From IMG/VR virus record IMGVR_UViG_3300020045_000347, positions 1 to 28,138 of that record: a stretch of 28,138 bases of DNA, one strand, 5' to 3'. Below are positions 1-24,835 of this stretch, piece by piece. The notes below the pieces were generated by a model. It worked only from the letters and a program-made list of their open reading frames with translations. It ran no database searches and was not told the origin of the DNA. The position numbers were made by a program, and so were the translations under genes. The DNA is from a virus (lineage: Duplodnaviria > Caudoviricetes). How positions within the stretch are numbered: position 1 is the first letter of the stretch; every line of letters begins with the position of its first letter.

Positions 1-3000
1 TTGAGCAGATAATGCACTATCAATCTTGTTAAGGTATGCTAACACGGGTGCTTGGTCTGCTGCAGCTCTAATAGCCGAAGAGAACACACTACCCTTGACG
101 TCATTGTCGGGTAACACGGGTGAGACAGCATCCCAGAAGCGTTGTGTGGTTCCCAGTAAGCCTGTCTGCCCAATATATCTCTGGAATTCCTTCTCTGACT
201 TCAACCACTTAGGCGGTGACTCACCGTACTTGATCATGTCTTTGAGGTACAGAGCGAGCATAGCTAGAGCCATCATCAACGCGATCGAGGTGGCAGCGTT
301 AATCTGATCGACTGACCCTGTCCTACGTAAGTCTTTGAGTAGCCTCGGTATAACCGTTGCAGTGAACGTAGAGGTGTATCCTTGGAACTGAGTAACTAGC
401 TGCAGATAAGGGTCATTGTAAAATGCTGGACGGTTAAGCTTAGACGGATGAACTACTGATTCCAACACAAAAGCATTAGTGCCGTTAGTTATCTCCTGCA
501 TAACAGCAGCATCATAGTCTGGGCTATCCTCGATAGGATTCAGGAACAGATCTACATTCACACCGAGCCTATTAAGGTGCTCTCTGGCCAGCTTAGCTTT
601 GTCACTCTTGGGGTCTGATCTGATTGTGCCAATCCAGTTCTGCATAGCATCAGTGCCAATGGCCAGCCGTGCATATCTCGTTATGTTGGTCACAGAGGTT
701 AGCCCGGTAAGCTTGAAGAAGCCCTCGGTGTACTTCTGGAAGTAACCGCTGATTACGTCCGTACGTGCTGTCATCGCGTTGTCACTTATGTATCCAGCTT
801 TATCGAGGGTCTCCCTGTACTTACTAGTATCAGCTTGACCACCGATAGCTTTGAATATGTGACTCAGTTCAGCACCAGTACCTTTCAAGATAGCCATCGT
901 AGCCTTCATCGATTGTGGTAGAGTTAGGTTACGGTAGACAAGACCGAATTCTACCGTGGATGAAATAGCTGCGAGTGGTAGTGACGTAATCGTTGTCAGG
1001 AAGCTCAAGGTATTTAGTGTGCCACTGATATACGGATTAGTTATCTGGTGATAGGTACCATCACGCATACCAAGCCATTTAACCAACTCACTAGCTTTGA
1101 ATGCTGCTTGCGCTTCAGTGATCTCACCATTAGTAATAGCAGTCTGTAACAAATAGTTTAATTTACTACCATTCTCACCAATGTAGTTCTTGTTGACATA
1201 GATACTGCCAGCTTTAGCCGAGAGGGACTCTACATTACGGTAGAGATCATTGGACAGATATGGGGCGAATGCACCTTTAGTGGTCGGGTTATTCATAACC
1301 TGCTCAATATTATTTTTCAGTGCAGTGTAGTTACTATCTGCATTCAGGACATCGTCCATCACATCGGTGATATCTGTTGCGCCATCATTGTTGATCAATC
1401 TACGCACAATATCATTTGCTTGGGTATCACTAATACCTAGTTTGGATTTTAGTGTTGATACGAATCCAGTTACATCCTGCGCGATAGCTGTTTTATCCAT
1501 CAATTTAGTAGACAAGAAATCGGTTACCTTCATGTTACTGTCGGTTTTCTTGTTGTATGCTGATACCATATTATCAACTCGATCGGCCAACTCATGGATA
1601 GCGTTCAGATTCTTGATAACCGATTCTGGTAGATATTGTTTGGGATCGACCGATGATATATTATCCTTGAGTGAAGTAGAATAGTTATTCGTTTTATGGT
1701 TAGCTAACTGGCTAATATATTCAACAACTCGAGGATCATACATAATCTCGGATACTTCAGACGATTTAATACCATCGAATAACCCGCGTATAGCATCCTT
1801 AGACCCCACCTTGTTCTTCACTTCCAGAGCAGTATTCGACTGTCGGGCTTCGATAGACCCACCAGAGAATACGTTATTAGAGCCTAGTAGGGATCCTAAT
1901 GCAGCAAGTGACCGCCCAGTGTAGTTGTGTTCACCCATGATAGTGTCGGAGAACTTGCCGAACAAAGAAGAGATCCCTTTGTTACCCCACCAAGAACCCG
2001 CCCGGGCAGCAAGCCCATTAGCAGCTAAAGCAGAGGTGTGTAGATTGGCTAGGTCAGATAGGGACTGATCTCTGGTAGTACCTTGGTACACCTTATCAGC
2101 TTCGTCGATCACTTTGATTAGCGAGTCAGTATTACGACCACCCTGTGCTTCCTTCTCACGAAACTTCAGGTCGTCCATATCAGGTGCTCTAGCTGGTAGA
2201 ACGCTTTGGGCTAAGTGTTGACCACCACCAAGCATACCACCAAGAGCTGAACCACCGATGAAAGCGTTAGCAGTTCTAATAGCGAGTGCTTGACGTTCTT
2301 CCGGGTCAGTGGGTAGCGAGATGCCCTTCTTTTCGCCGAAGTAACCCGCTAGTTCCTGCAGTGCTTCCTCCGGGCCTTCGTCCAGAATTCCCTTAACGGT
2401 GGCAACACCTGTCTGTCGGATAGCACCACCCTTAACCGCCTTCATAGCATCAGCCACTTGTGACGTTTGTTGTTTGATACTCTGCATAATAGCATCTTCA
2501 GCCGCTTTACGCTCCATACCACCCGCCATCAACTTCGCAATCACTTTCTCCTGAGTTTTACGTTCAAGGATATTGGTGAATACACCAGTGACACCAAGGG
2601 ATTCAATAGCAGCCTGAGTGATGCCGGATGCCCACGCCCATGCCGCGTCCTTTCCGTCCTTGGGCTGGTTACGCCATGTGTTACCGGCGTAGATCACAGC
2701 GGGGACGGTCAACGAAGCACCCATAGTAGCAGGTGCCGCAAGACCAGCCGCGATAGATACTAAGAACTGCGGCGCAGAGGTTGCTGCGGTACCGACGAGG
2801 TAGTCAGCTACTTGGGTGAAATCATTCAGGTTCCAATCACCCTTCTCATCAAGTGGTGAACCACTACGTAGGTAGGGTAACCCCTCTAAGTCAGCTTGGA
2901 GTGCATCACCTTGTGCTTTGCCATATGTACTAATGAATTCAGAACCGGATACACTACCAATACTATCAAGGGCATCGAATATGCCTTGCTTCATGGTAGT

Positions 3001-3651
3001 GTAGCCTGACTCGAGACCCGTTAGAGCATTCGATCTGGCGTACCCCGTTTTATCCTCACCGTCTTTTACATACGCTGGTCCTGAGAAGTACTGGCTATGA
3101 CCAGCAGAATCCAGAGAAGCGCCGAGCTGTTTGGCATTAGTGGTCTTCACCTTAGCCATCAATGGTTGCCCACCGTATAAGCTATCCATCAAACCACTAA
3201 GCTCTTCCGGATCACCGTTCTTAGCCCGTTCCAGTTCGCCAAACCGTTGTGTAGTTAGCTGCTCACTATTCGGTTTGAATGGTGTAGCGAAGCCATTACT
3301 GAGTACATAGCTGGAGAGTGTCTCGCCGCGTTCGTTGGCAAGATCACCGAGCTCTCGACCATAACGATCTTTTTCTCCTTTAGTTACTGGGATATTGAAC
3401 CCATTAAGTTTGATAGCAGAGTGGATCAGCTTACGTTGCTCTTGAGAACCCGGCATATCACCTGTGATCTTATCTTCAGTGAAGTGCCCCATCTCAGCCG
3501 CGTTAAAGCCGGACAACCGAATTTTACGTCCATCGGACATAGCGGCGGTATCCGCATCAATCAGCCTACCTGAATCAAAAGAGAAATCAGGGGTATCCTC
3601 CACTGGTGCTTTAATCCCCTGTGAAGCTAAATAATCGTCAAATGTACTCAT
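1..3651 (-). CDS. Large internal virion/DNA-ejection protein with N-terminal SNase (thermonuclease)-like domain; 3' end truncated by window
   Basis: Absent from the ORF track. ATG at 3651 with SD AAGGGG; I read the frame by hand and found no stop in 1217 codons. Starts MSTFDDYLASQGIKAPV. Contains RLIDADT...KIRLSGFNAAE...KDRYGRELG...LSSYVLSNGFA, hydrophobic Gly/Ala segments, and EGPEEALQE, FFKLTGL and TQFQGY motifs typical of podovirus ejection proteins. Last gene visible in the ejection cluster. Confidence 0.85.
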   Translation of the reverse strand, partial: MSTFDDYLASQGIKAPVEDTPDFSFDSGRLIDADTAAMSDGRKIRLSGFNAAEMGHFTEDKITGDMPGSQEQRKLIHSAIKLNGFNIPVTKGEKDRYGRELGDLANERGETLSSYVLSNGFATPFKPNSEQLTTQRFGELERAKNGDPEELSGLMDSLYGGQPLMAKVKTTNAKQLGASLDSAGHSQYFSGPAYVKDGEDKTGYARSNALTGLESGYTTMKQGIFDALDSIGSVSGSEFISTYGKAQGDALQADLEGLPYLRSGSPLDEKGDWNLNDFTQVADYLVGTAATSAPQFLVSIAAGLAAPATMGASLTVPAVIYAGNTWRNQPKDGKDAAWAWASGITQAAIESLGVTGVFTNILERKTQEKVIAKLMAGGMERKAAEDAIMQSIKQQTSQVADAMKAVKGGAIRQTGVATVKGILDEGPEEALQELAGYFGEKKGISLPTDPEERQALAIRTANAFIGGSALGGMLGGGQHLAQSVLPARAPDMDDLKFREKEAQGGRNTDSLIKVIDEADKVYQGTTRDQSLSDLANLHTSALAANGLAARAGSWWGNKGISSLFGKFSDTIMGEHNYTGRSLAALGSLLGSNNVFSGGSIEARQSNTALEVKNKVGSKDAIRGLFDGIKSSEVSEIMYDPRVVEYISQLANHKTNNYSTSLKDNISSVDPKQYLPESVIKNLNAIHELADRVDNMVSAYNKKTDSNMKVTDFLSTKLMDKTAIAQDVTGFVSTLKSKLGISDTQANDIVRRLINNDGATDITDVMDDVLNADSNYTALKNNIEQVMNNPTTKGAFAPYLSNDLYRNVESLSAKAGSIYVNKNYIGENGSKLNYLLQTAITNGEITEAQAAFKASELVKWLGMRDGTYHQITNPYISGTLNTLSFLTTITSLPLAAISSTVEFGLVYRNLTLPQSMKATMAILKGTGAELSHIFKAIGGQADTSKYRETLDKAGYISDNAMTARTDVISGYFQKYTEGFFKLTGLTSVTNITRYARLAIGTDAMQNWIGTIRSDPKSDKAKLAREHLNRLGVNVDLFLNPIEDSPDYDAAVMQEITNGTNAFVLESVVHPSKLNRPAFYNDPYLQLVTQFQGYTSTFTATVIPRLLKDLRRTGSVDQINAATSIALMMALAMLALYLKDMIKYGESPPKWLKSEKEFQRYIGQTGLLGTTQRFWDAVSPVLPDNDVKGSVFSSAIRAAADQAPVLAYLNKIDSALSAQ

Positions 3652-3667
3652 CGATACCCCTTATAGT

Positions 3668-6223
3668 TTACTTGCGCTTTGAGTTAATATAACCCTTTAG
3701 TTGGGCTTCCGCAAAGTTATAGAAAGCAGAATTGTCTTTAGAAGCTAGGTAGCGTTTACTCAGATTACCACGATCATCGTCCCAAGCTTTAGCTAGTGTC
3801 TTGAGTTTGTTGTTGATATAATCATCGTCAGCTTTCTTACCTTCTAGGTTAGCTACTGACTTTACCTGATCAACTAACTGCATACGCACAGGTACCGCCA
3901 TTGGCTTACCATCATTACGAATGAACATGTCCTCTTTGATAGCACCCTTAGTGTCCATCTTGATACGAGCTTCTTCGAGGTAAGGTAGAATAGTCTTGGG
4001 TGAATATCCATTGCTATTATCCCGCTTCATATACTCCACAGCAGTAGGTACAAGCAGCCCCATCTGCTGATTAGTGTTCTCGTCATTAGTATCATACCCA
4101 TGCGACTTCATCCAGTTAGCCATCTCAGTAGCGATAACGCTGGATGCTGGGTAAGTATCACGGTTCTGGATGTTACCACGAGAATCTTTAGGTAGGTTCA
4201 TCTTGATGACCTCTTCGGCTGACTTGGCATGGCTATCAATAAGTTGTTGACGATCCTTCGCTAAAGCATTTCGGTTAGTTCCCTGACCATAATCCACTAA
4301 TGCCACTGGTCTGTCTGACCCCGCTGATACAAACTTAGTTAGCTCGTTGTAGTCGCCCCACTGCCCACCGTTGATTCTAAACTGCTGCTTAGTCTCGTTG
4401 GTATACTTATCAGTTAGTGTCCTGACCTCAAATGGATCACCAGCATGAGATCCACTTGTAGGTGTAACATACTTAGTTGATCCAACCTGCTTTAGAGAAG
4501 GTATACGATCTCCGAGGTCTTCACGATTTCCCGTCTCAAGGAATCTCTTTGCCTTGATAGGATCGAACCCATCCTTGATATAGTCTTGTAGTAGTAGTCT
4601 ATTCTCAGATCGGACAGCATTCGTCTCTGAGCGGGCATCGGCTGTTTCAACGGATTGCTTGGTGTCGTACTGTTTCAAGGAATCCATAGCAGCGTATTTC
4701 AAACTACCATTAACAGATCCACCAGTAAGTAGCCCACCAGCACCTAGCAGGGCGAACCTACCGAGCGTCTTCGCATTGATAATACCTTCCTTACCGAAGA
4801 TACCGGAGAGGAACTCGGATAGGAACGATTGGGCTTCCTCTGGTTTACCTGCAGCTGCGATGACCTGGGCTTTCTCTTTAGCTTTATTAATAGCATATTC
4901 GTTATCTCTGGCAATTTCAGCCATACGGAAGTTAACCTGCGCAGACTCAGGTGTCATAGTTGCAACAGGTGGCACTTCCGGTACACTCGCAAGGGCATCG
5001 ATCTGTTTAGGCGGTACCCAGTCTGGCTTGGTTTTCTGTTTCCAAGCATTAAACTCATCTAGCGATGTGATAGTTCCGGATTGTAACGGTGGGGCTGACG
5101 GGACAGGAATACCACCGATAACACCTTGTTTAACGAAAGCTTTAACTGGATCATTCATATATCCGTCCGCAAAAGCAGCTGTTCTTCGGTCTCTTTCAAG
5201 TTCTAGCCCACCCTTATCCGACATACTAGCAGCGCGGGCATATTCAGGAGAATACCAAGGTGCCTTTAAGCCAGGGTCGGTTGGTGTAGTCGGGGATACT
5301 TTCATATTAGCTACATAGCCCTCAATAGCTGGAACATACTTCTGAGTCTCTAGTGGCATCTTTGATAACCAAGCATCACCGGCCTTAGATGCACTATCCA
5401 CGTTACCCGCACCTGCATTGTAAGCTGCCAACGCTTTATCGGTATCACCACCATAGCGGGTAAGCATAGCCCTCATATAGTCATTCTGAAAACGAAGAGC
5501 CTCTTCCTGACTCTGGTTAGCTAACGGTGACACCCCGTAGCCAGGATCGACACCTGTATTTGGCATAATCTGAGCAATACCACGAGCACCTTTAGGGGAT
5601 ACCGCAGAATGATTACCACCAGACTCTTGCCTGATTTGTGCAGCTAAAACCTCATTTAGGTTAGATGGCATAAACCCTTGGCGTTTGTTATACTCGTCTT
5701 GGACACTCTCAGTACCACCCGCATACCCCTTCAGCTTCCTACGAGAACCAACGATAGGAATAGTAGGTAACATATTCTCAGGATCAACCATGCCAGTGCT
5801 TTTCTTAGGAACCTTCGTAGTACCCTTGGCGTATCCGCGACCCTCATTAACAAGAGAGGTAATTACTTCTTTATTCTTTGGGTTCTGCGCTGCAGCTTCA
5901 GGGATGACTGCTTCCCCGGGTGTAAGCATAGCAGGAACAGTGTCACTAGGGCCACCCTCTGGATTACTAAATTCAATATCATCCCTACGTTCTGGAACAG
6001 GATTCAATGGGGGAACAGGTGAATGCATACCTGAATCGGCCAGCTTCTGTTTCTCTTTAATGATCTGATCACGAGTCTTGAATTGGAGACCTAAATTAGC
6101 TTTTGCCTCTGCCTCTTGAACTTTGATCTCCTGAAGCTCTTGCTTACGCTGTTCATCAGCGAGAGCCTTAGATCGATCTAACTGCATCTTCTGCTGTAGT
6201 TTACCTGACAGTGGTGCTACCAT
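3668..6223 (-). CDS. Internal virion/ejection protein with lytic transglycosylase (SLT) domain
   Basis: SLT motifs IRQESGG (catalytic Glu), GARGIAQIMP, ALAAYNAG and ETQKYV at aa ~190-302; hydrophobic segment FALLGAGGLLTGG; SD AAGGAG. Confidence 0.88.
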   Translation of the reverse strand: MVAPLSGKLQQKMQLDRSKALADEQRKQELQEIKVQEAEAKANLGLQFKTRDQIIKEKQKLADSGMHSPVPPLNPVPERRDDIEFSNPEGGPSDTVPAMLTPGEAVIPEAAAQNPKNKEVITSLVNEGRGYAKGTTKVPKKSTGMVDPENMLPTIPIVGSRRKLKGYAGGTESVQDEYNKRQGFMPSNLNEVLAAQIRQESGGNHSAVSPKGARGIAQIMPNTGVDPGYGVSPLANQSQEEALRFQNDYMRAMLTRYGGDTDKALAAYNAGAGNVDSASKAGDAWLSKMPLETQKYVPAIEGYVANMKVSPTTPTDPGLKAPWYSPEYARAASMSDKGGLELERDRRTAAFADGYMNDPVKAFVKQGVIGGIPVPSAPPLQSGTITSLDEFNAWKQKTKPDWVPPKQIDALASVPEVPPVATMTPESAQVNFRMAEIARDNEYAINKAKEKAQVIAAAGKPEEAQSFLSEFLSGIFGKEGIINAKTLGRFALLGAGGLLTGGSVNGSLKYAAMDSLKQYDTKQSVETADARSETNAVRSENRLLLQDYIKDGFDPIKAKRFLETGNREDLGDRIPSLKQVGSTKYVTPTSGSHAGDPFEVRTLTDKYTNETKQQFRINGGQWGDYNELTKFVSAGSDRPVALVDYGQGTNRNALAKDRQQLIDSHAKSAEEVIKMNLPKDSRGNIQNRDTYPASSVIATEMANWMKSHGYDTNDENTNQQMGLLVPTAVEYMKRDNSNGYSPKTILPYLEEARIKMDTKGAIKEDMFIRNDGKPMAVPVRMQLVDQVKSVANLEGKKADDDYINNKLKTLAKAWDDDRGNLSKRYLASKDNSAFYNFAEAQLKGYINSKRK

Positions 6224-6232
6224 ATATTCTCC

Positions 6233-6727
6233 TTAAAACAATTTAATTCCTAGCAGTCTAGCTGCGAGAAGTCCTGCACCTACATAGGGCATTGCTGTGC
6301 CAATGGTGGACGCCACCCCAGCCCCGAGAGGTGCCGCTGAGGCTGCTACTGTAGAAGCATTAGCAATACCAGCGCCAGTAGCCGCGGCTTCGGGTAGCGC
6401 GAGTACACCAGCGCCTTGGGTAAGGGTGCCATCAGCCGCCATCTGCCCACCGTACTGCGCGAGTGGTGCTGAGGAGATACCCAACGCATTGCTGACTCCC
6501 GTAATACCCTCTTCGATATACGGGGAGGCCTTTTTCTCCATAAGGTCAGCCCCTTTATTAATAGTCTTACCAACGATCATTGGTTTAACTACGCTGGTAA
6601 CAATACCCGGCTGGCCCTGCACGACCTCTGCGGGTGTAGCCTGTGCGGGTTGTACCGATGAACCTGATAAAGGTGACGCTACGGGTTGCTGTGAGGCCCA
6701 TGCCCACGGATCTTCCTGGTTATACAT
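6233..6727 (-). CDS. Small internal virion/ejection protein (Ala/Gly-rich, C-terminal hydrophobic helix)
   Basis: Start revised to ATG 6727 (MYNQEDPWAW), which follows the upstream stop as TAA-T-ATG with GGAGAG upstream. C-terminus AMPYVGAGLLAARLLGIKLF. Lies in the ejection cluster. Confidence 0.7.
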   Translation of the reverse strand: MYNQEDPWAWASQQPVASPLSGSSVQPAQATPAEVVQGQPGIVTSVVKPMIVGKTINKGADLMEKKASPYIEEGITGVSNALGISSAPLAQYGGQMAADGTLTQGAGVLALPEAAATGAGIANASTVAASAAPLGAGVASTIGTAMPYVGAGLLAARLLGIKLF

Positions 6728-6728
6728 A

Positions 6729-7142
6729 TTAGCCCTCTCCCGAATTACCGGAATTGCCTGTGCCACTTGGGCCAGGATCACTGCTACCATAGGTGCTACC
6801 ACCCGTACTTAAATCGGTTACAGGTGCCATGTTGGTAGTACCAAAAATACCATTAGGGGTACCACTATAGAAACCAGTATCTGTGTAACCATTATTAACA
6901 AACCCACCACTACCGCCATTCGCAGAACTACTATACAATGCACCAACAGGTGCAGCAGCCACTTGTTGAGCTACTGTATTCATACCAGCTGGAACGAACT
7001 TTGTGTTAATTGCACTAGTACCCTTACCACCAATCGTTGGTACCGCGTTGAACAAATTTTGGAACTGATTCTCGTTAGCCCCAGTCTGTTTAAAAGTAGG
7101 TGCTTGAGCAGCAACTACAGGTTGACCTACAGTGCCTCCCAT
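6729..7142 (-). CDS. Gly-rich hypothetical protein, probable internal virion protein
   Basis: 137 aa; TAATG overlap with the upstream gene; low-complexity G/S/T/N composition. Confidence 0.6.
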   Translation of the reverse strand: MGGTVGQPVVAAQAPTFKQTGANENQFQNLFNAVPTIGGKGTSAINTKFVPAGMNTVAQQVAAAPVGALYSSSANGGSGGFVNNGYTDTGFYSGTPNGIFGTTNMAPVTDLSTGGSTYGSSDPGPSGTGNSGNSGEG

Positions 7143-7810
7143 TATTTACCACCTGACGCAGTTGTTTGCTGACGAGCAGGATTACCGTAGATAGTACTAG
7201 CATATCTTTGAAGAGATTGCCAGGGTGCGTCAAGCTCCTGCTGGGCGATACTTCGCTCTTGATTACCGAGATTAGCCAGACCACTAGCTGTGTTATTAGC
7301 GAGAGAAGAGGATCCACTGACGGATTGCCCAAGGGCTCCTTCAGCAGCCAATCTGTTTTTATACATGGCATCCTCGTAGTTGGCATCTACTGCGGCTAAT
7401 TTAGCTGTAGTATCCGCATTCTGTGAACCTTGCATTACAGCTTGACGTGCTGACCCAAGTGTTCCGGATTGACCGAACCCGGTAGTCAGACCAGCCACAT
7501 TCTTCTGTGCATCGAGTAGTACAGCATTCTTTTGTGCTGCTAACGTTGCCGCTGATGGTGTTGCTGCCATATTACTTAATCGGGATTGCTGATCCGCCAG
7601 GTAGTCCATGCCTTGAGCACCTGATGCACCGATAGCAGTACCACCGGCACCGAAAGCAGCTTGCTGTAGGCCGGATGCGCCAGCTACGTTACCCAGGTCA
7701 CCGGACTGATACATTGTTTCAGCCTGATTACCTACATTCTTCATGTATGGCACTGCCCATTCTGGGATAGACGAAGATGTGGTTGAAGAGCCACCGCCAC
7801 CACTACTCAT
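7142..7810 (-). CDS. DNA pilot/ejection protein
   Basis: N-terminus MSSGGGGSSTTSSSIPEWAVPY, internal GTLGSARQA, C-terminus GGK; A/Q/G-rich; directly follows the GNAT-like gene, as P22 gp7 follows gp14. Confidence 0.7.
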   Translation of the reverse strand: MSSGGGGSSTTSSSIPEWAVPYMKNVGNQAETMYQSGDLGNVAGASGLQQAAFGAGGTAIGASGAQGMDYLADQQSRLSNMAATPSAATLAAQKNAVLLDAQKNVAGLTTGFGQSGTLGSARQAVMQGSQNADTTAKLAAVDANYEDAMYKNRLAAEGALGQSVSGSSSLANNTASGLANLGNQERSIAQQELDAPWQSLQRYASTIYGNPARQQTTASGGK

Positions 7811-8234: not shown

Positions 8235-9850
8235 GTTAGTCTCGCTGCTGGTAATGTTACTGTTCCAGGAGTTGTTCCTGGGAGGTCTGTAGAATTGAGT
8301 GTTACCGTTGCATCAGACCAGATATAGAATCTTACTTGGGTATCTGTGGCCCAATAGTATGATACAGGTATTGTCAACTGTGTTTGAGCGCCATTGGCTA
8401 TTTCTTGTACTCTCGCTGAGTAGCGCACAATAACCCACCCAGCGCCTGCTTTATTCTCTTCAGCATAGTAGTATACCTTCTTATTTGCAGCCGATGGTGT
8501 CGCATTAAGCATCAATACCAATGTATGAGTCCCACTTTGTAACGTTGTAACGATACCTGTGGAGGCATTATAAGAGAATCCTTGGGAAATGTCTACTGTA
8601 GGAAACTTAAACACAGTAGGAACCGTTGGTAAAGCAACCCCAGAGGTTGTGTTGATTAGATGCAATGAGGGATACCAGGGTTTTCTGTCTATCTTAATGA
8701 ATACTTTACCCAGGGCATCCGTGTGGACAACATATCCAACAGAGATAACAAAAGAGGGTTGTAGCGGAGCAACCTTGGTAAACCCGCCTGATACAACACT
8801 TGATAGGAATAGCTCATCACCTTCTACTAGTGTGTTAGAGGATGCATCAGTTAACGTTGATATATCATTTACCATACCTGATGAAGTGATATACCCGTAC
8901 GAATTACTGTGGATATCATGGGTAGCCATACCAATAGTAGATCCGGAGGTGAAAACCGTAGATGCGTTAGCCAAAGCTATAGATGGTATATCGTTGAATG
9001 CACCACTGATATAAGCAATGCTACCATTCAAGATAGTCGATCCAGTATTGTTATACACCCTTATAAGCTCTTCTCTACCAATATTAACAGTGATGTCCGA
9101 TTCGTCATTGTAGTAAGCTAGCGAATGGGTAGCGCTATCATAAAATACCTTACCCTCTACATGCGTTTGTGGGGATACTGGTGTAAACACCAAACTATCT
9201 GAGACAGTGCTAGACGCTATTGAGGAGGTGCTGATTGTCCCATTATCGAAAGATGTATTAGTTACAGAGCCATTGTCAAATGAAGAGTTAGTTATAGATC
9301 CAGTATCAAAGGAAGACCCACCTATCGTTCCAGTATCAAATGACGAATCAGTTATAATACCACCATCTAGGTAAACGCTGATATCTTGTAGGTGGGCTAC
9401 ATTAATATCACCACTTACAATAGTCTTAGGTAATACTAACTTATCAAGGTCGATAACATTAAAAGGTTCCTTCACCCACTTCTCAGTAGGTGGGTTTACA
9501 GCTACCTGGAACTTGACAGTTCTTACACCAAGCATAGTGTAATAAACAAAGTATGTAGTACCAAATCCAGGGGTGAACTCGAACCATTGATAGTCAGCTG
9601 GGTTGCTGGATTCAACGCTGTCGCTACTATTCCTAAGACCCCAAAAGTATTTGTTAGCTGGTAAGTTGGACATACCCGTACCAACATTGCTATCAGCATA
9701 TTTAATATGTATGTATTGTTCCGGGTATGGGACCGGATTACCAGAAGGTGGGGGTACACCGCTATCATAACCAGAATCTGTTACTTGTCTATATACCTCC
9801 TGTAAGAAGGCATCGAGGTCTTTATTATCGGTATACGGCGGGTTAAGCAT
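8225..9850 (-). CDS. Multidomain tail fibre/needle protein with C-terminal C1q/TNF-like domain
   Basis: N-terminal YIHIKYAD...SSNPADYQW module; 10-aa SSFDxG repeats; central beta domain (YNNTGSTI...IGMATHDI...GDELFLS); C-terminal FKFPTVDISQGFSYNASTGIVT resembles the start of a C1q domain. Follows the nozzle gene. Confidence 0.65.
   Translation of the reverse strand: MLNPPYTDNKDLDAFLQEVYRQVTDSGYDSGVPPPSGNPVPYPEQYIHIKYADSNVGTGMSNLPANKYFWGLRNSSDSVESSNPADYQWFEFTPGFGTTYFVYYTMLGVRTVKFQVAVNPPTEKWVKEPFNVIDLDKLVLPKTIVSGDINVAHLQDISVYLDGGIITDSSFDTGTIGGSSFDTGSITNSSFDNGSVTNTSFDNGTISTSSIASSTVSDSLVFTPVSPQTHVEGKVFYDSATHSLAYYNDESDITVNIGREELIRVYNNTGSTILNGSIAYISGAFNDIPSIALANASTVFTSGSTIGMATHDIHSNSYGYITSSGMVNDISTLTDASSNTLVEGDELFLSSVVSGGFTKVAPLQPSFVISVGYVVHTDALGKVFIKIDRKPWYPSLHLINTTSGVALPTVPTVFKFPTVDISQGFSYNASTGIVTTLQSGTHTLVLMLNATPSAANKKVYYYAEENKAGAGWVIVRYSARVQEIANGAQTQLTIPVSYYWATDTQVRFYIWSDATVTLNSTDLPGTTPGTVTLPAARLTWA
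9198..9366 (-). repeat. 30-bp (10-aa) tandem coding repeat, about 4-5 copies
   Basis: ITDSSFDTGT-IGGSSFDTGS-ITNSSFDNGS-VTNTSFDNGT-ISTSSIASST; 'cagtatcaaa' recurs at 9301 and 9331. Confidence 0.85.
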
Positions 9851-12780: not shown

Positions 12781-14292
12781 TCATTTTGCCACCCATCCTG
12801 TATTCCCCGTCCCAGTCTCTTTAACATAGACTGATGTGCTTGCTCCACCGTCTGTTCGCAAGTATAAGCTTCCGACTGGTGCTGACGCATCTCCTCGTCC
12901 GTTAGGAGATCCTGGCCCTGCAAAGATACGAGCCGTTGAGGCGTCCACCCCTGTAAGTTGAACAAGGTTGGTATCTATCCTTCCACGATTCGTCCCGGTG
13001 TTGGTAGATTCATCAAATGTAGCTGAAACTATGCTCGGACCGTATACCACAACATCATTAACAGCCGTGCCATTGACAGGATTATTGATCTCAAGCTGTC
13101 CGCTTGTGTTTGTTTTTAATGTGGCAATTGTCGATCCTGATTTGTTTTTAAATCTTGCTTGCTGCCATATATCAAGGGATTCAAACATCCCGGGGATTCC
13201 AGATGTCGAGTACGCTACAACCCTACCCGAGACAGCATCGTTATAAACATTATCGTAATTGCTGTTACAAGTAGTTCCGATAATATTTACCTTCCCAACG
13301 GAACCAGTTACTTTAATAAAATCTGTTGCTGCCGCAGTATTTGAAAACCCGTAGCTTCCAATAATGTTTATTGTGGCCCCGGCAAGATTGTTAAGTTGAA
13401 CTCCAAGGCTTGATGCTGTTGGTTCCGTTGTTACGTTATGTTCATAACGGTAGTTAATTAGGTTGATATTCGTATTTTCCGTTGACCCAACATCAACGTA
13501 AAATCCAGCCTCTCCTGTGCCGTTCACACCGGCGTTATCTACTTGTAGATTTGCGATATTTGCAGCATGAGTCGTAGCTCCATTCAGATGTACGCCATTC
13601 TTTCCGGCAGAGCCGACAAATACGTTATTCACCCATATCGGGGTAGATGTTGCAAACACCTGAATGCCGTGGTCCCTTGAGTAGCCCAATTTAACGCTGT
13701 CTAGCCCGGAATTACTAAACAAAGAACCCACAAAGTAACAAGAACCAGCTACTAAATTACCTGCTCTATTAGCATTCACTGTTAAATTGCGCACCATTGA
13801 CCCAGATAGTCCGGATAGAGAGTCGTCAAAATTAGCCAAAACGTGGCAATTTTGAGAGTCAGCGAGTTTTATCCTTGTTCCTGTTTGAGCTCCTGAAAGA
13901 GTAGCAACCCCAGCGCCGACAAGGTTAACCCATGATTTAAGTAAGATTGCACATCCTATACTTGTCATAGTATCAAGCGCAACAGTACTTGGATCCTTAG
14001 AAACTAGATATTCACCTGTAGGAAAGTAAACCGTTCCGCCATAAGTGGAAACAGAATCAATGGCCGTATTAATTGCCACAGTGTCATCTGTAACGCCATC
14101 CCCCACTGCCCCGAAGTCTTTAACCGACACCCAGTCATTGAGCTTGCTGGTTACTGTCCGTGAGGTTGCCCCCGTACCATCGTGTAAGTAATAACCCGCA
14201 ACAGGATCGATAACTAGATCATCAACCCTATCACTGGGCGCGAGAGATACTGATCCACCACTGGTGGTTTTAAGTTTAAGAGTTGATGTCAT
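12781..14292 (-). CDS. Tailspike 2 (pectate-lyase-like beta-helix depolymerase)
   Basis: VSVKDFGAVGDGVTDDTVAINTAI...VYFPTGEY beta-helix cap; C-terminal GSP...APVGSLYLRTDGG...YVKETGTGNTGWVAK module; SD AAGGA. Confidence 0.88.
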   Translation of the reverse strand: MTSTLKLKTTSGGSVSLAPSDRVDDLVIDPVAGYYLHDGTGATSRTVTSKLNDWVSVKDFGAVGDGVTDDTVAINTAIDSVSTYGGTVYFPTGEYLVSKDPSTVALDTMTSIGCAILLKSWVNLVGAGVATLSGAQTGTRIKLADSQNCHVLANFDDSLSGLSGSMVRNLTVNANRAGNLVAGSCYFVGSLFSNSGLDSVKLGYSRDHGIQVFATSTPIWVNNVFVGSAGKNGVHLNGATTHAANIANLQVDNAGVNGTGEAGFYVDVGSTENTNINLINYRYEHNVTTEPTASSLGVQLNNLAGATINIIGSYGFSNTAAATDFIKVTGSVGKVNIIGTTCNSNYDNVYNDAVSGRVVAYSTSGIPGMFESLDIWQQARFKNKSGSTIATLKTNTSGQLEINNPVNGTAVNDVVVYGPSIVSATFDESTNTGTNRGRIDTNLVQLTGVDASTARIFAGPGSPNGRGDASAPVGSLYLRTDGGASTSVYVKETGTGNTGWVAK

Positions 14293-14300
14293 TATATTCC

Positions 14301-14609
14301 TTATTTAATTGATCCTGTTTTGAACCATACTATGGTTGCGGAGATAACACCGCTGATAATAATAATAGGTTTTAGCATATCACCAATCCAACCAAGTACT
14401 TTAAAGAATGATCTTCCAAGACCAATAATCTCTAATACTTCAGCCGTCTTCAGGTTGTTTTCAGTTAGCATGCTCTTTATCGCAAGTAGTTCTGCTGCGT
14501 GTATATTCACTCTACGCTCTAGGATAAATACCCCTTTGCAGTCGGAGCTACAAACATCCTCCTCGCGGAGGGGCTCTTCAACGCGGCGGTCTTCGTGTGG
14601 TAAGGTCAT
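14301..14609 (-). CDS. Small membrane protein (EDRR motif, helical middle, C-terminal TM); possible lysis-related protein
   Basis: Start revised to ATG 14609 (TAA-C-ATG after tailspike 1); TM segment PIIIISGVISATIVWF. Confidence 0.6.
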   Translation of the reverse strand: MTLPHEDRRVEEPLREEDVCSSDCKGVFILERRVNIHAAELLAIKSMLTENNLKTAEVLEIIGLGRSFFKVLGWIGDMLKPIIIISGVISATIVWFKTGSIK

Positions 14610-14610
14610 G

Positions 14611-16554
14611 TTAAATCGGTGTGTAGACTGTAGAATTAACACCATCCTTCCAGACCGACACATCAGACTGTCCAGCTGCAAATACAGGGCGGTTGTTAGT
14701 CGTATCCCAAACCATCTTGCCGGGGTATTTGTTGGCAGTGTTGACGGCGTTTGTCTTGAGTGCTAGATTTGCTGCTGTGGTGCGCAGTACGCCTGGATTG
14801 ACAGAACCCTCACGCACTATTTTAGCGACTTGCTTTTTCGTCTCTGTGAGAGTATCAACACCCTGATAAACCATAATATTCGATATTTTCCAGGTTGCTC
14901 CAACAGCATCAAAGGGGGCGAGAGACAGATAACTTCCAGAACCTCCGCCGTAAATAGAGCGCGTCATGACAACTCTTGTAAGTTTTCCTGCAAGTAATGT
15001 TTCTTGCCATTGCATCTTGCTTGCCGCTGCTCCATCATACCAAGTACCATTTACAAGACTATCAATGGAAGACTCAATTAGAAAACTAATAACAATCGTG
15101 TTGTCTGCTGTAACGGCAGGTAGTGGCAACTGCAACGATGAAGTGAAAAGCGTAGCAGGGAACACAAATTGCGTACAAAAACCCTGCTTGGTATCTTCTA
15201 CAAATGTCTTTGTAGGTGGAGAGCTCCCCGTAGCTGTCATATTCCCGACAATATCCGAGTACAGCGCCGGAACGCTGCTATCTAATTTCAGTTCAGGAAC
15301 ACCAAACATAGTAGTTTGGTAGAGATTCAGACTGTTTACGATCGTTGACAAAAATGATTGGGGCCAAGTGGCGACATTTTGAACAACCCCACAGCACTGA
15401 AACTCGCCTAACAGATTGACAATGGACGACGCGTCTGCTTGGACGATCTTTGCTCCAGTAGCAGCGGCGCTATTGGTGAAGTTTTCTAGATTGAGGACTG
15501 ATCCATTTTCGATATAGGCCCATACAGGCGCGGTGCTGTCCTCAATTTTGAAGTCTTTGAGAGAGAGTGTTGAGTTATTGGAATACACCACACAGCGAGG
15601 GATTACCTTCCCATTGATGGTTTGTGACACTGGAGCAAATGCCGGGTTTGCGTTGGCCTCAGGAGACCCGCCATAAAAATTAGCCTGTGCGTTGTATGCG
15701 GCAATGGCAGTGTAGTTACCGTTGGTTTGCGCGTTGTAAAAGTTATTGGCAATACTTCCGAGGTTGATTACTCCATCAATATAAATGCCCACCGCTTGAT
15801 AAACGGCGGTTATTCCGTAAAACTCATTGCTGTTGCCACCGAGCCCAGCCGCTGGAACTATCGAGAAACCTATTCCCCATCCCCCTGTTGCCACCAGATT
15901 CCTGAACCTGCAGAACTGAACCCATCCAAGTTGAAACGCCACAGTGTCCGCATTAAGAACCCTGACGTTATCCATGACAGACCCTGCGTTGTATGAAGCT
16001 GGGATTGTGATGTCCACATAAACACCAGTTATCCCTGTTTTACCGGTTGCATCAATGCACAGGTCGCGCACTTCCTGCCATCCGGTATCACCTCCGAAAC
16101 TTGCCCCCGGTGCCAGCGTCAACATTTTCATATTGTTGGCCGAAGGCTTCAATATTGATGCCTGCCCCCATAGCTTACCCCACTTCGGCACGGTCACAGC
16201 CGACGACAGGTAATTCCCAATAGGGAAGATAACAGGCCCCACAGGCGAATCCGTGAAAGCGTTTGCTATTGCTGTTCCGCTGTTTGTTCCCCCCGTCGGG
16301 TCGGCCCCTTTGTCTTTGACGCTTTGGGTATCACGCAGTTTGCTCTGCACAGTAGTGGCAACTGCACCAGTGCCTGCTGGGAGATAACTCATCCCAGACC
16401 CATCATTGTGAATCCGCTGAATCTCCGTTAGCGCTCCATCGAAGTTCCCCTTACTAAATACCAGATCCCCAGTAGATGGCTCACTTGCGATCACGATGTT
16501 TTTACTGGCGGTGACATTACTGCCAAGCTGCACATTGTTTGTTTTTAATGTCAT
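14611..16554 (-). CDS. Tailspike 1 (beta-helix depolymerase with additional C-terminal beta-sandwich)
   Basis: Start revised to 16554 (ATGA overlap, MTLKTNNVQLG). Neck YLPAGTGAVATTVQSKLRD, cap SVKDKGADPTG...IFPIGNY, C-terminal NAVNTANKYPGKMVWDTTNNRP module. Confidence 0.85.
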   Translation of the reverse strand: MTLKTNNVQLGSNVTASKNIVIASEPSTGDLVFSKGNFDGALTEIQRIHNDGSGMSYLPAGTGAVATTVQSKLRDTQSVKDKGADPTGGTNSGTAIANAFTDSPVGPVIFPIGNYLSSAVTVPKWGKLWGQASILKPSANNMKMLTLAPGASFGGDTGWQEVRDLCIDATGKTGITGVYVDITIPASYNAGSVMDNVRVLNADTVAFQLGWVQFCRFRNLVATGGWGIGFSIVPAAGLGGNSNEFYGITAVYQAVGIYIDGVINLGSIANNFYNAQTNGNYTAIAAYNAQANFYGGSPEANANPAFAPVSQTINGKVIPRCVVYSNNSTLSLKDFKIEDSTAPVWAYIENGSVLNLENFTNSAAATGAKIVQADASSIVNLLGEFQCCGVVQNVATWPQSFLSTIVNSLNLYQTTMFGVPELKLDSSVPALYSDIVGNMTATGSSPPTKTFVEDTKQGFCTQFVFPATLFTSSLQLPLPAVTADNTIVISFLIESSIDSLVNGTWYDGAAASKMQWQETLLAGKLTRVVMTRSIYGGGSGSYLSLAPFDAVGATWKISNIMVYQGVDTLTETKKQVAKIVREGSVNPGVLRTTAANLALKTNAVNTANKYPGKMVWDTTNNRPVFAAGQSDVSVWKDGVNSTVYTPI

Positions 16555-17144
16555 ACAATCACCCAATTTGATCCCGAAGGAACTGTTACTGTTACGCCAT
16601 CCGCAATGATCATTGGGCCAGCACTCATACCATTCTTACCCGCTGTTAATGTATAGCTCACATCAACCTGAATATCATTCTCGAATACGAAGAAGTCACC
16701 ATCTCCACCGCCAGCACCCGCCGCAGCAAGCCAGATGGTACCATTAAAATATTCCAATCTAGCTGTGGTGGTATTATATCTTAAAGAACCTACAGGTGGT
16801 GATACATCACGTTGCGCGGTTGTACCTGTGGGGATCTGTGCTGACCCTGTGTCGGATGTCTTGGCAACAGTATTGACATCAAGAGCAAACACCCAAGATA
16901 CACCGTTGTAACCCTCGAAGTGAGCTGCCTCAGTATTATAACGAAGGCTACCAAGAATGGGTACTGGATCTCTCTGCGCAGTAACGCCCACCGGTATCTG
17001 TGCTGATCCTGTACCAGATGTCATCGGTACAAAGTACACTTTGGTACTCACACCATCAACCCAAGTAGCGCCCCCATCGAATCCCGCATACTGACCACCT
17101 GCGCTTTGACCGGATGCAGCACCGGGATACGTTGAGTATGCCAT
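16551..17144 (-). CDS. Short tail fibre / receptor-binding-protein adaptor with two internal repeats
   Basis: Two TSxTGSAQIPxGxTAQRD...GSLRYNT...ExxNGxxW repeats; C-terminal FENDIQVDVSYTLTAGKNGMSAGP...VTVPSGSNWVIV domain. Confidence 0.7.
   Translation of the reverse strand: MAYSTYPGAASGQSAGGQYAGFDGGATWVDGVSTKVYFVPMTSGTGSAQIPVGVTAQRDPVPILGSLRYNTEAAHFEGYNGVSWVFALDVNTVAKTSDTGSAQIPTGTTAQRDVSPPVGSLRYNTTTARLEYFNGTIWLAAAGAGGGDGDFFVFENDIQVDVSYTLTAGKNGMSAGPMIIADGVTVTVPSGSNWVIV
16731..17021 (-). repeat. Duplicated 43-aa coding module (162-bp period)
   Basis: aa 42-84 (17021-16893) versus aa 96-138 (16859-16731); DNA similarity is still visible ('atctgtgctga' in both copies). Confidence 0.85.
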
Positions 17145-18344: not shown

Positions 18345-18959
18345 TTATGCTACCTCGTAGCTATTAGTTGCGGGTTCAACATCATCAACAACTATACTTA
18401 TACCAACAGTGCCTATTATGTTACTGATTTGTACTACAGAAGAGTACTTTGCTGTAGCGGTGCTGAGTGGACCATACCTGTAGGAATACCCTTGTAGGGC
18501 AGAGTAACCACCAATCAGAATACCAGAGGAATTACCAGGAACACCTGTACCACCAATACCGACCACTGAATGCAACTGGTTTATTACTACACCAGTAGTA
18601 CTATGTGTAGTATTTCTAGATGCCGAACCGAGTATAGCAGCTTCGGTACCTGTTATAGCGCCAATCACCGCATGTGTCGTGTATCTAGCAGAAGTACCTG
18701 AGAGAAATGCAGGTAAACTTAAAATACTACCAGATGTTTGGTGCGATCTAAATCTAGCTGAAGACCCCGATACGGTGGATACTTGGCCTAGTAGCACACC
18801 TGATGTTGTATGTACTGTATAGCTCGCAGAGTTACCGAATACTACAGAGGATACTGCGGAGAGAGCCCCTACGGTATCATGGTTTGAGCCACCTGCCACC
18901 GCAGGCGCATCAGCCCATCCCCACGGCTTGTCACCCCAGCTTGATGCGCCCCAGGTCAC
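18345..18959 (-). CDS. Virion fibre-associated repeat protein (WG-rich N-terminus, 23-aa repeats)
   Basis: GTG start; MTWGASSWGDKPWGW followed by five His-led 23-aa repeats. Confidence 0.65.
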   Translation of the reverse strand: MTWGASSWGDKPWGWADAPAVAGGSNHDTVGALSAVSSVVFGNSASYTVHTTSGVLLGQVSTVSGSSARFRSHQTSGSILSLPAFLSGTSARYTTHAVIGAITGTEAAILGSASRNTTHSTTGVVINQLHSVVGIGGTGVPGNSSGILIGGYSALQGYSYRYGPLSTATAKYSSVVQISNIIGTVGISIVVDDVEPATNSYEVA

Positions 18960-18966
18960 TTAAGAC

Positions 18967-19371
18967 TCACAGTGATGCGGCCAGCAGCCACAAATCGTCG
19001 GCCTGTTGCTCAGACACGCCCAGCGCAGCGATCATGGCCACGACTTTGACGTGATTGCGCTCAAACACGGTGGCGAATTCCCACCAGTCTTTTGTATCCT
19101 GATCGCTTGCAGCCACGGCAGCTTCGACGGATGCACGTAAGCCTACGATGGTCAGGGCTTGACGGATTTGGCGCGGGGAGACTGTGGGGATGGCAGCACG
19201 GGCAGCGGCGGCTTGAGCGGCTGGGTAAGCGGCTTCAATTTCTGCTGGCGTGGGCTGTGGCTCGGGGCGGTGCCACTGCGCGATGTAGGGGCCGTTACCA
19301 GCATCCTCCACGATGCATTCAGTCTCAAAATTGATGCCGGGGAAAAGATTGGCAATAGATAGTGTCAGCAT
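18967..19371 (-). CDS. Tail-fibre assembly chaperone-like protein (XkdW-like N-terminus)
   Basis: LFPG...VEDAGNGPYIAQWHRPEPQPTPAEI followed by VSPRQIRQAL...WWEFATVFERNH...DDLW; immediately downstream of the fibre gene. Start 19371 preferred to 19383. Confidence 0.65.
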   Translation of the reverse strand: MLTLSIANLFPGINFETECIVEDAGNGPYIAQWHRPEPQPTPAEIEAAYPAAQAAAARAAIPTVSPRQIRQALTIVGLRASVEAAVAASDQDTKDWWEFATVFERNHVKVVAMIAALGVSEQQADDLWLLAASL

Positions 19372-19372
19372 G

Positions 19373-20188
19373 TCATTCCCCATAGTAAATAGCAGTTAGG
19401 GAATGTGCCGCCGCTACCCCTGCAATCGTTACCGCAGATGCAGCACTTGCACCCACGTACAGCCACGGTTCCAGGTAATCAGTAGAGCCATTCATTTGCA
19501 CAATCAAGGATGAAAATGAGCCGCCAGCCGCATTTGACACTGATCCTGCTGCATAAAATTCGCTTCGCGTTCCGCGCCCCAGTGCCACGCCGTTTTTGTA
19601 AATGGCGCTTGCGACGACAACGTTGCTTGCAGAGATCGTTGTAATTTGTGCCACGGTGGAGAATGACAAGATATATTTACCCGGCAACGTAGGCTGAAAC
19701 CGCGCAATGCCCGCGTTCCACCACCCGCGCTCATCGGTCGTTTCAACGTCAAAAACGCCGCTTTCTGAGCTGCCTTTGAGCCTGTTCCACGCATTGAGCG
19801 TGAGTGACTGAGATGCGCCTGAATTGGTCACAAATACATAGCCTGCATTGCGCGAAATCGTGTCGAGCAAATTACCAAACCCCGCCGACATCGTCACCGT
19901 CACCACAGCCGCGCTGGTCAGGTCAATCGGGACACCTGTGCTGCTATCGTCAAACGTCCCACGAGTCAGTGTGCGAGTGGCATGGGTATAAACGCAGCCG
20001 GTGCGCTGTTCTTCCCCGTTGACGCAAGCGGCGGTGATCGTAAACGACTTGCCGTTGTGCGCAGCCGTGAAATCACGCACAGGAATGCCGTCAGGCCGCG
20101 TGATCGGGCCTGCGATGACTAAATCACCCGACACGCCGGGCGTGTTCGAGATCGTGACGGCGGTGTTGTTTAGGGCTAGATCGGGCAT
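19373..20188 (-). CDS. Fibre tip protein with C-terminal C1q/TNF-like domain
   Basis: N-terminal anchor (...TLTRGTFDDSSTG...VTVT); C-terminal RFQPTLPGKY...AIYKNG...SSLIVQMNGSTDYLE. Confidence 0.7.
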   Translation of the reverse strand: MPDLALNNTAVTISNTPGVSGDLVIAGPITRPDGIPVRDFTAAHNGKSFTITAACVNGEEQRTGCVYTHATRTLTRGTFDDSSTGVPIDLTSAAVVTVTMSAGFGNLLDTISRNAGYVFVTNSGASQSLTLNAWNRLKGSSESGVFDVETTDERGWWNAGIARFQPTLPGKYILSFSTVAQITTISASNVVVASAIYKNGVALGRGTRSEFYAAGSVSNAAGGSFSSLIVQMNGSTDYLEPWLYVGASAASAVTIAGVAAAHSLTAIYYGE

Positions 20189-20191
20189 GGA

Positions 20192-20581
20192 TTAGGCCCC
20201 TAATGCAGTATACGTAAGCGACGAGCAGGATACGGTGTCACCCGCTGCGATAGTAAGCCCATTAGTCATATTGATATCACCCCCGGAAGAGGCTACAGAG
20301 CAGTGGATAACTACAGTACCACCCGATGTTTCTAGAGTAGCTGTGGCCACCGGGGATGCATTGCCAGTGGCATTTGTATCTGACGTAATAGCGTTAGCAG
20401 TGGCGGTACCAACTGACGAAGCACCAAAAGCGGTAGCAGAAAGTGTTAATGTCGCAGCAGCTAACCCAGGGGCACCTACAGTACCAGTCAATCTGAACTT
20501 AAGTTTACCAGAGGCACCGAGGAGTGCTGTCACTGCGTTTGTTGCAGCATCTCTTGCTGTTGTTGAGTGTGTTACTGACAT
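20192..20581 (-). CDS. Virion structural protein, probable fibre shaft subunit
   Basis: 129 aa, A/T/S/G-rich; ARDAATNAV...ATLTLSATAFG...GGDINM...TIAAGDTVS.SSLTYT pattern. Confidence 0.65.
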   Translation of the reverse strand: MSVTHSTTARDAATNAVTALLGASGKLKFRLTGTVGAPGLAAATLTLSATAFGASSVGTATANAITSDTNATGNASPVATATLETSGGTVVIHCSVASSGGDINMTNGLTIAAGDTVSCSSLTYTALGA

Positions 20582-23978: not shown

Positions 23979-24336
23979 TATTTTCTGTTCCTTCTTGAAC
24001 TTTGTTTTGTTGATTGATAAATTGCATGTTGGCACCATACATCTCAATACCAACCATCTTTTGTTTTACAGACCCTAATGCCATAGCACTGGAGTAGAGA
24101 TACTGCCTAAGTTTGTCTTCATGCGGCTGGCTTGATAACCACGCCATGAAAATATCAGTCAAGATATCTGTGTAGCATTCCTTAAAGAAATCTTCCCTCT
24201 CTGCCTTAGCAAACATAGATTGTTTTAAAGCAATCTGTGAGTCACGGAATGGATCTACTTTCTCCTTACCCATACCATCTGAGTAATCTACTTTTGGTTT
24301 GATACGATCGTTAAAACCCTTACGAAATTGTTCCAT
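23971..24336 (-). CDS. Hypothetical helical protein between portal and scaffold
   Basis: 121 aa; SD AGGA; FFKECY.DIL.DIF..WL...EDKLRQYLY motif. Confidence 0.7.
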   Translation of the reverse strand: MEQFRKGFNDRIKPKVDYSDGMGKEKVDPFRDSQIALKQSMFAKAEREDFFKECYTDILTDIFMAWLSSQPHEDKLRQYLYSSAMALGSVKQKMVGIEMYGANMQFINQQNKVQEGTENNE

Positions 24337-24835
24337 TATATTTCCTGTTATAGTTTAAAAGAGCAAGAATCCTATCTTCACTCTCTTTTAAGTGCCCTAA
24401 AGCTATATTACAATTATTACACAGTATACCACGAACATCACCTGTTGTGTGGTTATGATCTACATGATGCCGACGCAGCATACTTGGATCCCATGGATCA
24501 CCACACGAGTCACATGTTCCCTCGGATAAGGCGAGTAATTCGGCAGCACGATCTATGTCAACAGAGAAGAAGTAAGATAATCTACGTTTAGCGTACAACT
24601 CCTTATTAACCGCACGTAATTCCTTGCGACGAGCAGAGATGGTTTCTTTGTTAGAATCACGGTACTGCTTATCTTGCGCTAGCTTCTTCTCCCTATTGAG
24701 GTAGTAAGTTTCTTTCTTTTTAGCCCGTTCAAACTCTATGTTCTCGTGATACCTTTCCTTCTGTTTGGCTAGTATCACTTCCTTATTGGTATGGTAATGC
24801 TCCCGTTTTCTTCTTAATTGCTCTTCATTTGTCAT
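24320..24835 (-). CDS. Free-standing HNH homing endonuclease, endonuclease VII family
   Basis: CDSC...HVDHNHTTGDVRGILCNNCNIALG signature; basic N-terminal Y..N.E repeats; SD AAGGA. Confidence 0.88.
   Translation of the reverse strand: MTNEEQLRRKREHYHTNKEVILAKQKERYHENIEFERAKKKETYYLNREKKLAQDKQYRDSNKETISARRKELRAVNKELYAKRRLSYFFSVDIDRAAELLALSEGTCDSCGDPWDPSMLRRHHVDHNHTTGDVRGILCNNCNIALGHLKESEDRILALLNYNRKYNGTIS

Follow-up and report, generated by a model that had tools for sequence, protein, structure and literature searches.

The N-terminal part of the T7 ejection protein gp16 (aa 1-156) is described as a periplasmic transglycosylase which forms outward 'wings'; after it come membrane region I, a core in the cytoplasm and membrane region II (PMC8954989). 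The virion RNA polymerases (vRNAPs) N4 gp50 and DEV gp71 are cysteine-free, ejected proteins with an N-terminal membrane part, and the DEV paper describes the absence of cysteine as a signature of ejection proteins (PMC11445570). In phage Pa223, mass spectrometry detected gp53 (1,055 aa) in virions, and this protein is assigned as the gp16-like inner-membrane complex (bioRxiv 2025.06.11.659172). Staphylococcal nuclease (SNase) is a secreted and strictly Ca2+-dependent enzyme (PMC11719836).

An SNase domain and an ejection-protein body are each of a known kind. Their combination did not appear in the literature searched, including main texts on polyvalent, T7, N4 and DEV proteins. The word 'nuclease' is not mentioned in the main text of the N4 or the DEV paper. 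The main text on phage polyvalent proteins, which are alike in being virion-borne and multidomain with enzyme cargo, does not contain SNase, staphylococcal, thermonuclease or micrococcal, although the domain could appear in its supplements with a different name (Iyer et al. 2017, PMC5512222).

The window, meaning the whole 28,138-nucleotide stretch of viral DNA that was analyzed, comes from a record that is itself a 28-kb fragment and encodes a large protein with a predicted SNase head on a putative ejection-protein body. The likeness to T7 gp16 is an analogy of layout only, with an N-terminal enzyme, a membrane region, a helical core and a second membrane region in this order (PMC8954989). 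The head of gp16 is a transglycosylase, whereas the window protein has an SNase-like head and the SLT domain is found on the upstream gene. N4 and DEV have the polymerase and the membrane part in one fused protein, whereas in relatives of the window phage an RNAP-like gene is separate and lies directly downstream. The head shares its predicted fold and the D-x-D-T, R, E and R site residues with the SNase family PF00565 (1sta, 3mz5 and variants), but has Asn at the D40 position, shows no secretion signal and is fused to a membrane-type body of more than 1000 aa.

The locus and the putative ejection-protein body

The window is a podovirus structural module with all genes on the minus strand. It encodes an SU10-type portal, a scaffold, an SU10-type major capsid protein, an adaptor, tail genes, a GH108 endolysin and an SLT-bearing protein. 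The features discussed here are as follows.

1..3651, minus strand: large cysteine-free protein of at least 1217 aa with a predicted SNase head and a putative gp16-like inner-membrane ejection body (phrog_6958 E 1.6e-24; no Cys; both ends match LUZ24 gp50 as apparent homologues)
3214..3567, minus strand: predicted SNase (thermonuclease) domain, aa 29-146 (Pfam; AlphaFold with Foldseek and VIA; atlas neighbours are PF00565 clusters)
3547..3558, minus strand: D32-A-D34-T35 motif (D32, D34 and T35 in 33/33 representatives)
3493..3519, minus strand: R45, N50 and E53 (R45 and E53 in 33/33; position 50 is N in 25 and D in 8)
3355..3357, minus strand: R99 (33/33 representatives; 146/149 wider rows, the remaining 3 being gaps)
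2710..2766, minus strand: uncharged hydrophobic conserved segment aa 296-314, first predicted membrane segment (simple hydropathy and charge scales)
2218..2274, minus strand: uncharged Gly-rich conserved segment aa 460-478, possible second membrane segment (simple scales)
202..1182, minus strand: C-terminal region of the LUZ24 gp50, PaP3 p19 and tf gp51 family, with hydrophobic segments aa 878-896 and 1118-1136 (sequence matches)
3668..6223, minus strand: 851-aa cysteine-free protein with an SLT domain at aa 186-280, putatively in a gp15-like slot by position (Pfam SLT E 7.6e-16; no Cys)
6233..6802, minus strand: 189-aa cysteine-free protein, putative ejection cassette (no Pfam or PHROG match)
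7142..7810, minus strand: 222-aa cysteine-free conserved protein, putatively in a gp14-like slot by position and size (conserved in related loci; no family match)

The preliminary description had proposed a hidden ORF of more than 1200 aa running from 3651 past position 1, and this was borne out. The ORF (3651..<1, minus strand) is open over 1217 codons, with an AAGGGG ribosome site 5 nt upstream of its ATG, and its C-terminus lies beyond the left end of the window. Since the nearest relatives are 1239-1276 aa long, about 20-60 aa are absent from the window protein. The gene is the largest of a cassette placed after the tail genes, in which the SNase-headed protein and the upstream 851-, 189- and 222-aa proteins all lack cysteine. 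The scaffold and one tail protein also lack cysteine, so this property is not exclusive to the ejection cassette.

The cell-wall hydrolase of the cassette (the slot at 3668-6223) is swapped among relatives. It carries SLT in the window, GH108 in L004, pesticin/lysozyme in CRP-7 gp35 (L001), Hydrolase_2 in L049 and a lysozyme-like domain in L053, and no cell-wall hydrolase was detected in this slot in L003 and L006. Elsewhere in the window, an Endonuclease VII-type gene (24320-24835, minus strand, Pfam E 2.5e-17) lies between the portal gene and a 121-aa gene, overlapping the latter, and is probably a mobile homing endonuclease. A 541-aa tail protein contains imperfect 30-nt repeats at 9240-9359 that encode a pentapeptide-like run (SSFDTG/SSFDNG). 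Several tail-fibre/spike-like genes (503 and 651 aa) lie at 12781-16566 and 18345-20581 (minus strand), and the capsid genes are separated from the tail genes by a block of small genes. Promoter and terminator counts in the window show no excess, being at or below chance, and the repeat search gave nothing notable.

The body matches phrog_6958 over aa 824-1150 (E 1.6e-24). This is the family of tf gp51, which is annotated as similar to LUZ24 gp50 and PaP3 p19. The family profile also matches LUZ24 gp50 (1055 aa) in two regions, aa 66-278 and 615-961, with an E of 3.7e-22 at Z=1e6. Judged by these profile matches, the body is homologous to LUZ24 gp50, the gp16-like ejection protein of Bruynoghevirus. 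The large particle proteins of Bruynoghevirus and Krylovvirus in this family (LUZ24 gp50, PaP3 p19, tf gp51 and Pa223 gp53) share the N-terminal membrane and C-terminal regions, are also cysteine-free, and are placed after the tail and smaller ejection genes as in the window, but they lack the SNase head, their first residues corresponding to about aa 215 of the window protein. Cysteine is absent in 93 of the 95 relatives of at least 900 aa (from the best 150 of 961 clusters, minus P0068; see below). Homology, gene order and the lack of cysteine thus support the earlier suggestion that the window protein is an ejection protein. Packaging in the virion is suggested because its homologue Pa223 gp53, which is equated with LUZ24 gp50 by genus and length (1055 aa) and not by sequence comparison, was detected in Pa223 virions by mass spectrometry.

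A model of the full-length protein has a low-confidence linker after the head and is helical thereafter. Foldseek with this model gave no PDB match at E<=0.001, and a PDB search with the full family profile gave nothing significant; both searches are insensitive for long helical proteins. Therefore, homology to T7 gp16, to which the family has no sequence or fold match in these searches, is not claimed. The nearest named atlas clusters to the body carry LPD38, LPD3, PBECR3 or MuF_C, with scores of 0.91-0.93, and serve as a lead only.

The SNase head and its predicted active site

The assignment of aa 29-146 to the SNase family is supported by both profile and structure searches. Pfam PF00565 matches aa 43-141 when the first 184 aa are used (E 5.7e-4), where the 20.7 bits just miss the cut-off of 21. 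The score is 21.6 bits, above the cut-off, for the 144-aa head piece and 16.9 bits, below it, for the whole window protein. Among 13 related heads, 8 match SNase at E<=0.1. The AlphaFold model of the head has a pLDDT of 73.8, and all 50 PDB rows listed by Foldseek are staphylococcal nuclease (best E 1.2e-4, TM about 0.5). VIA places 1sta first among 48,161 chains, with a Z of 9.2 and an rmsd of 4.0 over 113 aligned residues. The identity to solved SNase chains is about 14-22%, and PDB searches using the sequence only gave nothing significant. The atlas neighbours of the head are PF00565 clusters, and in the viral library it matches best a protein of 1368 aa, as long as CRP-7 gp34, with thermonucleases coming next. 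The model and these matches indicate an SNase domain with the SN fold, an OB barrel plus three helices. The preliminary description had placed such a domain at 3214..3567; these coordinates correspond exactly to aa 29-146, and its four motifs and its numbering of D32, D34, R45, N50, E53 and R99 are correct. As an observation on automatic annotation, two JGI members of the family bear the name 'endonuclease YncB (thermonuclease family)', and a UniProt phage protein of 1342 aa is labelled SNase-like.

We take D32, D34 and T35 to be D19, D21 and T22 of SNase, and R45, N50, E53 and R99 to be R35, D40, E43 and R87, a mapping made by motif order and spacing. D32, D34, T35, R45, E53 and R99 are the sole invariant residues of aa 1-293 in 26 representatives that are less than 80% identical and 21-53% identical to the window protein. 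Over the whole protein only 3 of 81 Asp, 4 of 58 Glu and 3 of 46 Arg are invariant in this set. The same six residues are kept in 33/33 diverse representatives. A wider set was obtained with a head profile searched against 1.84 billion representatives, which gave 961 clusters (at 50% identity) at E<=0.001 and 156 at E<=1e-10. The best 150 of the 961 were taken and P0068 was removed as a repeat-protein false match, leaving 149 rows. D32, D34, R45, E53 and R99 are kept in 145/145 covering rows, a count that is partly circular as the set was picked by a profile of the same motifs.

The Asn at the equivalent of D40 had been noted in the preliminary description, which read it as a possible catalytic weakening and proposed an Asp-versus-Asn survey. 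The Asn itself is confirmed, and the survey lends the weakening little support. Position 50 is N in 25 and D in 8 of the 33 representatives. In the 149 rows (best 150 of 961 clusters minus P0068), Asp is the commonest state with 77, followed by N 56, S 5, G 3, A 3, Q 3, Y 1 and one gap, and the other five residues are unchanged. Since the position alternates between Asp and Asn, the Asn does not indicate decay. A FastTree of the C-terminal region (long branches flagged) shows both states intermixed, and the idea that Asn50 represents a single loss of function was therefore rejected. Asn at this position also occurs in L033, a stand-alone phage SNase-like protein. Changes at D21, R35, D40, E43 and R87 of SNase are each described as harmful to activity, with D40E and D40G reported as detrimental (bioRxiv 2021.10.25.465661). 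By analogy, Asn50 may lower the metal affinity of the head, while the Asn carbonyl should still be able to bind metal.

The dN/dS is 0.05-0.42 for the head versus 0.035-0.24 for the body in 24 related, non-independent pairs, so the head is under purifying selection like the body. The head has a net charge that is near neutral or negative. Because the five site residues are invariant, the head is probably an active nuclease.

Distribution of the head and the downstream polymerase-like gene

The same cassette is present in 13 viral loci plus 22 more. The head is found in 34 of 35 loci located by body motifs alone, the 35th being a fragment cut at its 5' end, and the body is found on 95/95 proteins of at least 900 aa in the best 150 of 961 clusters (minus P0068). 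In L040:10001-13794 the homologue consists of two ORFs of 799 and 457 aa, with the break behind the head and membrane region; this is either a natural split or an assembly error. The nearest cultured relative found is the roseophage CRP-7, described as a 58-kb podovirus with a T7-type RNAP, and a T7-type RNAP is present in relatives of the window phage. CRP-7 gp43, gp38, gp37, gp36 and gp34 match window genes in the same order. CRP-7 gp34 (1368 aa) and gene 66 of Aeromonas phage phiA008 (L060:3706-9858, 2050 aa) carry the same head on the same body in cultured phages, and both are recorded as 'hypothetical'. Both have Asp at position 50 as opposed to the Asn of the window. CRP-7 gp34 is about 21% identical to the window protein, while phiA008 gene 66, which is cysteine-free with a canonical SNase head of 35.3 bits, has a long extra middle region, of which about 1200 aa are without assignment. 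No further relatives of the phiA008 N-terminus were found in phage records. P0172 (2314 aa) combines an SNase head with a weak M78 metallopeptidase match at aa 1345-1386, as in polyvalent proteins.

No head match is present in LUZ24 gp50, tf gp51, VPp1 gp14, Vibrio 1.262.O gp27 or the KPP25-like CRPAP1904 protein. Since LUZ24, tf and VPp1 do without it, the head is an accessory, optional module. The GTDB genome contigs gave 176 pattern matches and no confirmed relative, and thus no prophage or host clue. The records of phages tf (L015), PhiCHU and TL have annotated site-specific single-strand nicks, and their homologue is without an SNase head in the cases tested. The proposal that the SNase makes the nicks of tf and LUZ24 was rejected on the ground that these two phages lack the head.

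The next gene in the relatives encodes a protein of about 1120-1280 aa and is expected just past the left end in the window phage. Copies are found at L001:19048-22755 (CRP-7 gp33), L002:10186-13602 and L049:13945-17499. Three of three deep members tested have a weak match to phrog_414 (T7-type RNAP; E 1e-5 to 6e-4), which is absent in 5 other copies and in 1 more. D677, Y778-G779 and D963 are invariant in 20/20 representatives and presumably correspond to polymerase motifs A, B and C. Searching the PDB with a profile of this gene gave nothing significant and did not confirm the polymerase identity. The gene is a candidate for a divergent single-subunit RNA-polymerase-like protein, which would be a separate virion RNAP beside the normal T7-type RNAP. 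No RNAP-like ORF was found in the 18.7 kb of phiA008 examined.

An N4-like vRNAP (phrog_2206 E 1.6e-59) is encoded over two ORFs of 2422 and at least 1166 aa in L034, an 82-kb viral contig (9833-17101 and 17101->20598). Its N-terminus has SNase-like motifs with an insertion, scoring 15.8 bits, which was reached by 0/2000 shuffles. L034 was found through the same motif pattern and hence is a lead only. No further relatives of this N4-like head were found.

Location and possible role of the head

By simple scales, the protein has four conserved uncharged segments (aa 296-314, 460-478, 878-896 and 1118-1136), of which the first two lie between the head and the central region. If both of these cross the membrane, the head and the core would share a side, possibly the cytoplasm. 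The relatives give a different indication. An extra domain lies directly before the head in 6/149 rows (best 150 of 961 clusters, minus P0068). In P0061 and P0135 it is lysozyme-like, with phrog_7 matches of E 5e-5 and 5e-4 and a Pfam E of 0.0039 for P0135 that is below the cut-off, and it matches lysozyme-like ORFs of related cassettes. In P0039, P0051, P0060 and P0113 it has no family match; it matches a domain in upstream gp15-slot proteins and is presumably SLT-like, judging by a motif. In all six, every 19-aa segment from the start to the end of the head stays below a hydropathy of 1.3 (highest 1.26; maxima of 1.26 in P0061 and 0.98 in P0135), therefore the pre-head enzyme and the head would lie in the same compartment, and a muramidase has to be in the periplasm. 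As SNases that use Mg2+ are described (PMC3585158), the metal does not fix the compartment. We lean slightly towards a periplasm-facing head, because of the T7 gp16 layout and the lysozyme-like domains fused before the head in relatives. The preliminary description had also considered an attack on host nucleic acid. The head occupies the slot of the periplasmic transglycosylase of T7 gp16 and in some relatives lies behind a lysozyme-like domain, which points to the periplasm and away from host nucleic acid in the cytoplasm.

Together with their DNA, these phages likely deliver a pre-made nuclease into the envelope of the host. The best explanation, with a probability of only about 0.36, is that the head works outside the DNA tube, facing the periplasm, as a packaged and co-ejected nuclease that depends on metal and most plausibly cuts non-self DNA such as that of a co-infecting phage. 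The SNase-headed protein would be packaged in the virion, ejected after the smaller cassette proteins and anchored in the inner membrane, with the head displayed outside the DNA tube on the periplasmic side as a metal-activated nuclease. In the capsid it would be kept silent by a packed pre-ejection state or by a lack of free metal. The choice of foreign DNA, for example a competitor genome, as the target is the weakest step. Competitor DNA that enters through its own tube may be poorly stopped by a few anchored copies. Also against this explanation, the lysozyme matches are weak and below the Pfam cut-off, the other four pre-head domains have no family match, and the two uncharged segments between the head and the central region could possibly put the head on the side of the core. 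Finally, position 50 is occupied by S, G, A, Q or Y in 15/149 rows (best 150 of 961 clusters minus P0068), and changes of D40 are reported to harm SNase.

The conserved site is equally compatible with an active nuclease in the cytoplasm, where it would attack host DNA or RNA early (for shut-off, nucleotide supply or counter-defence) while a co-injected polymerase starts transcription. With two candidate membrane segments the head could end up on the same side as the core, Mg-dependent SNases exist (PMC3585158), the next gene of relatives has RNA-polymerase motifs, and an ejectosome protein with a counter-defence role has been described (ICP3 gp15 versus CBASS). However, the lysozyme-like domains directly before the head need the periplasm, and the incoming genome would itself be at risk from a non-specific nuclease; this role is rather unlikely. 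A head that does not cut, in which the OB fold grips the genome in the capsid or during passage, would accommodate Asn50 in the window protein and in 56/149 rows and the other residues in 15 (best 150 of 961 clusters minus P0068), given the reported harm of D40 changes to SNase (bioRxiv 2021.10.25.465661), and both Arg residues would serve binding too. Binding alone would hardly require D32, D34 and E53, which are as invariant as the Arg residues; moreover, the charge of the head is about neutral or negative, Asp is the commonest residue at position 50 of the same 149 rows, and LUZ24-type phages do without the head. Such a grip is therefore unlikely. The preliminary description had suggested a domain that grips or pulls the genome during entry, and a need for it is less favoured as LUZ24 gp50, tf gp51, VPp1 gp14 and Vibrio 1.262.O gp27 share the body but carry no such head.

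Controlled processing of the phage's own genome at entry, by a nick or trim of the leading end that possibly makes a template for the co-injected RNA polymerase, would account for the co-occurrence of the head with the candidate virion RNAP gene in CRP-7-like loci. It is also in line with the weaker SNase motif match at the N-terminus of the N4-like vRNAP of L034 (15.8 bits, 0/2000 shuffles) and with the site-specific nicks in the virion DNA of the related phage tf. However, tf and LUZ24 lack the head, so nicks there are of other origin, the examined 18.7 kb of phiA008 has no RNAP-like ORF, and canonical SNase is not site-specific, which makes this role quite unlikely. Its more specific form is a still more doubtful idea: the nuclease and a separate RNA polymerase would be ejected as a pair, and the head would nick or trim the entering genome so that the polymerase of the next gene transcribes it and pulls the DNA in. 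If true, the pair would be a two-gene counterpart of the giant polymerase of N4, with a genome-processing step unknown in any ejectosome. A vestigial or purely structural domain would fit the absence of the head from several related phage groups and the Pfam scores near or below the cut-off, but exactly the site residues are retained under a purifying selection like that of the body, and this reading is highly improbable.

The periplasmic nuclease favoured here poses a puzzle, namely how a DNA-filled capsid and a DNA channel could safely carry a non-specific nuclease. Since the cultured phages CRP-7 and phiA008 have the head and their close kin LUZ24 and tf do not, the question is directly testable. 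The N-terminal enzyme of the gp16 type is described as a cell-wall hydrolase and the cargo of the N4 type is a polymerase; a nuclease would be a further class of pre-made cargo. This cargo, kept in about 150 clusters at 50% identity, would act before any phage gene is expressed.
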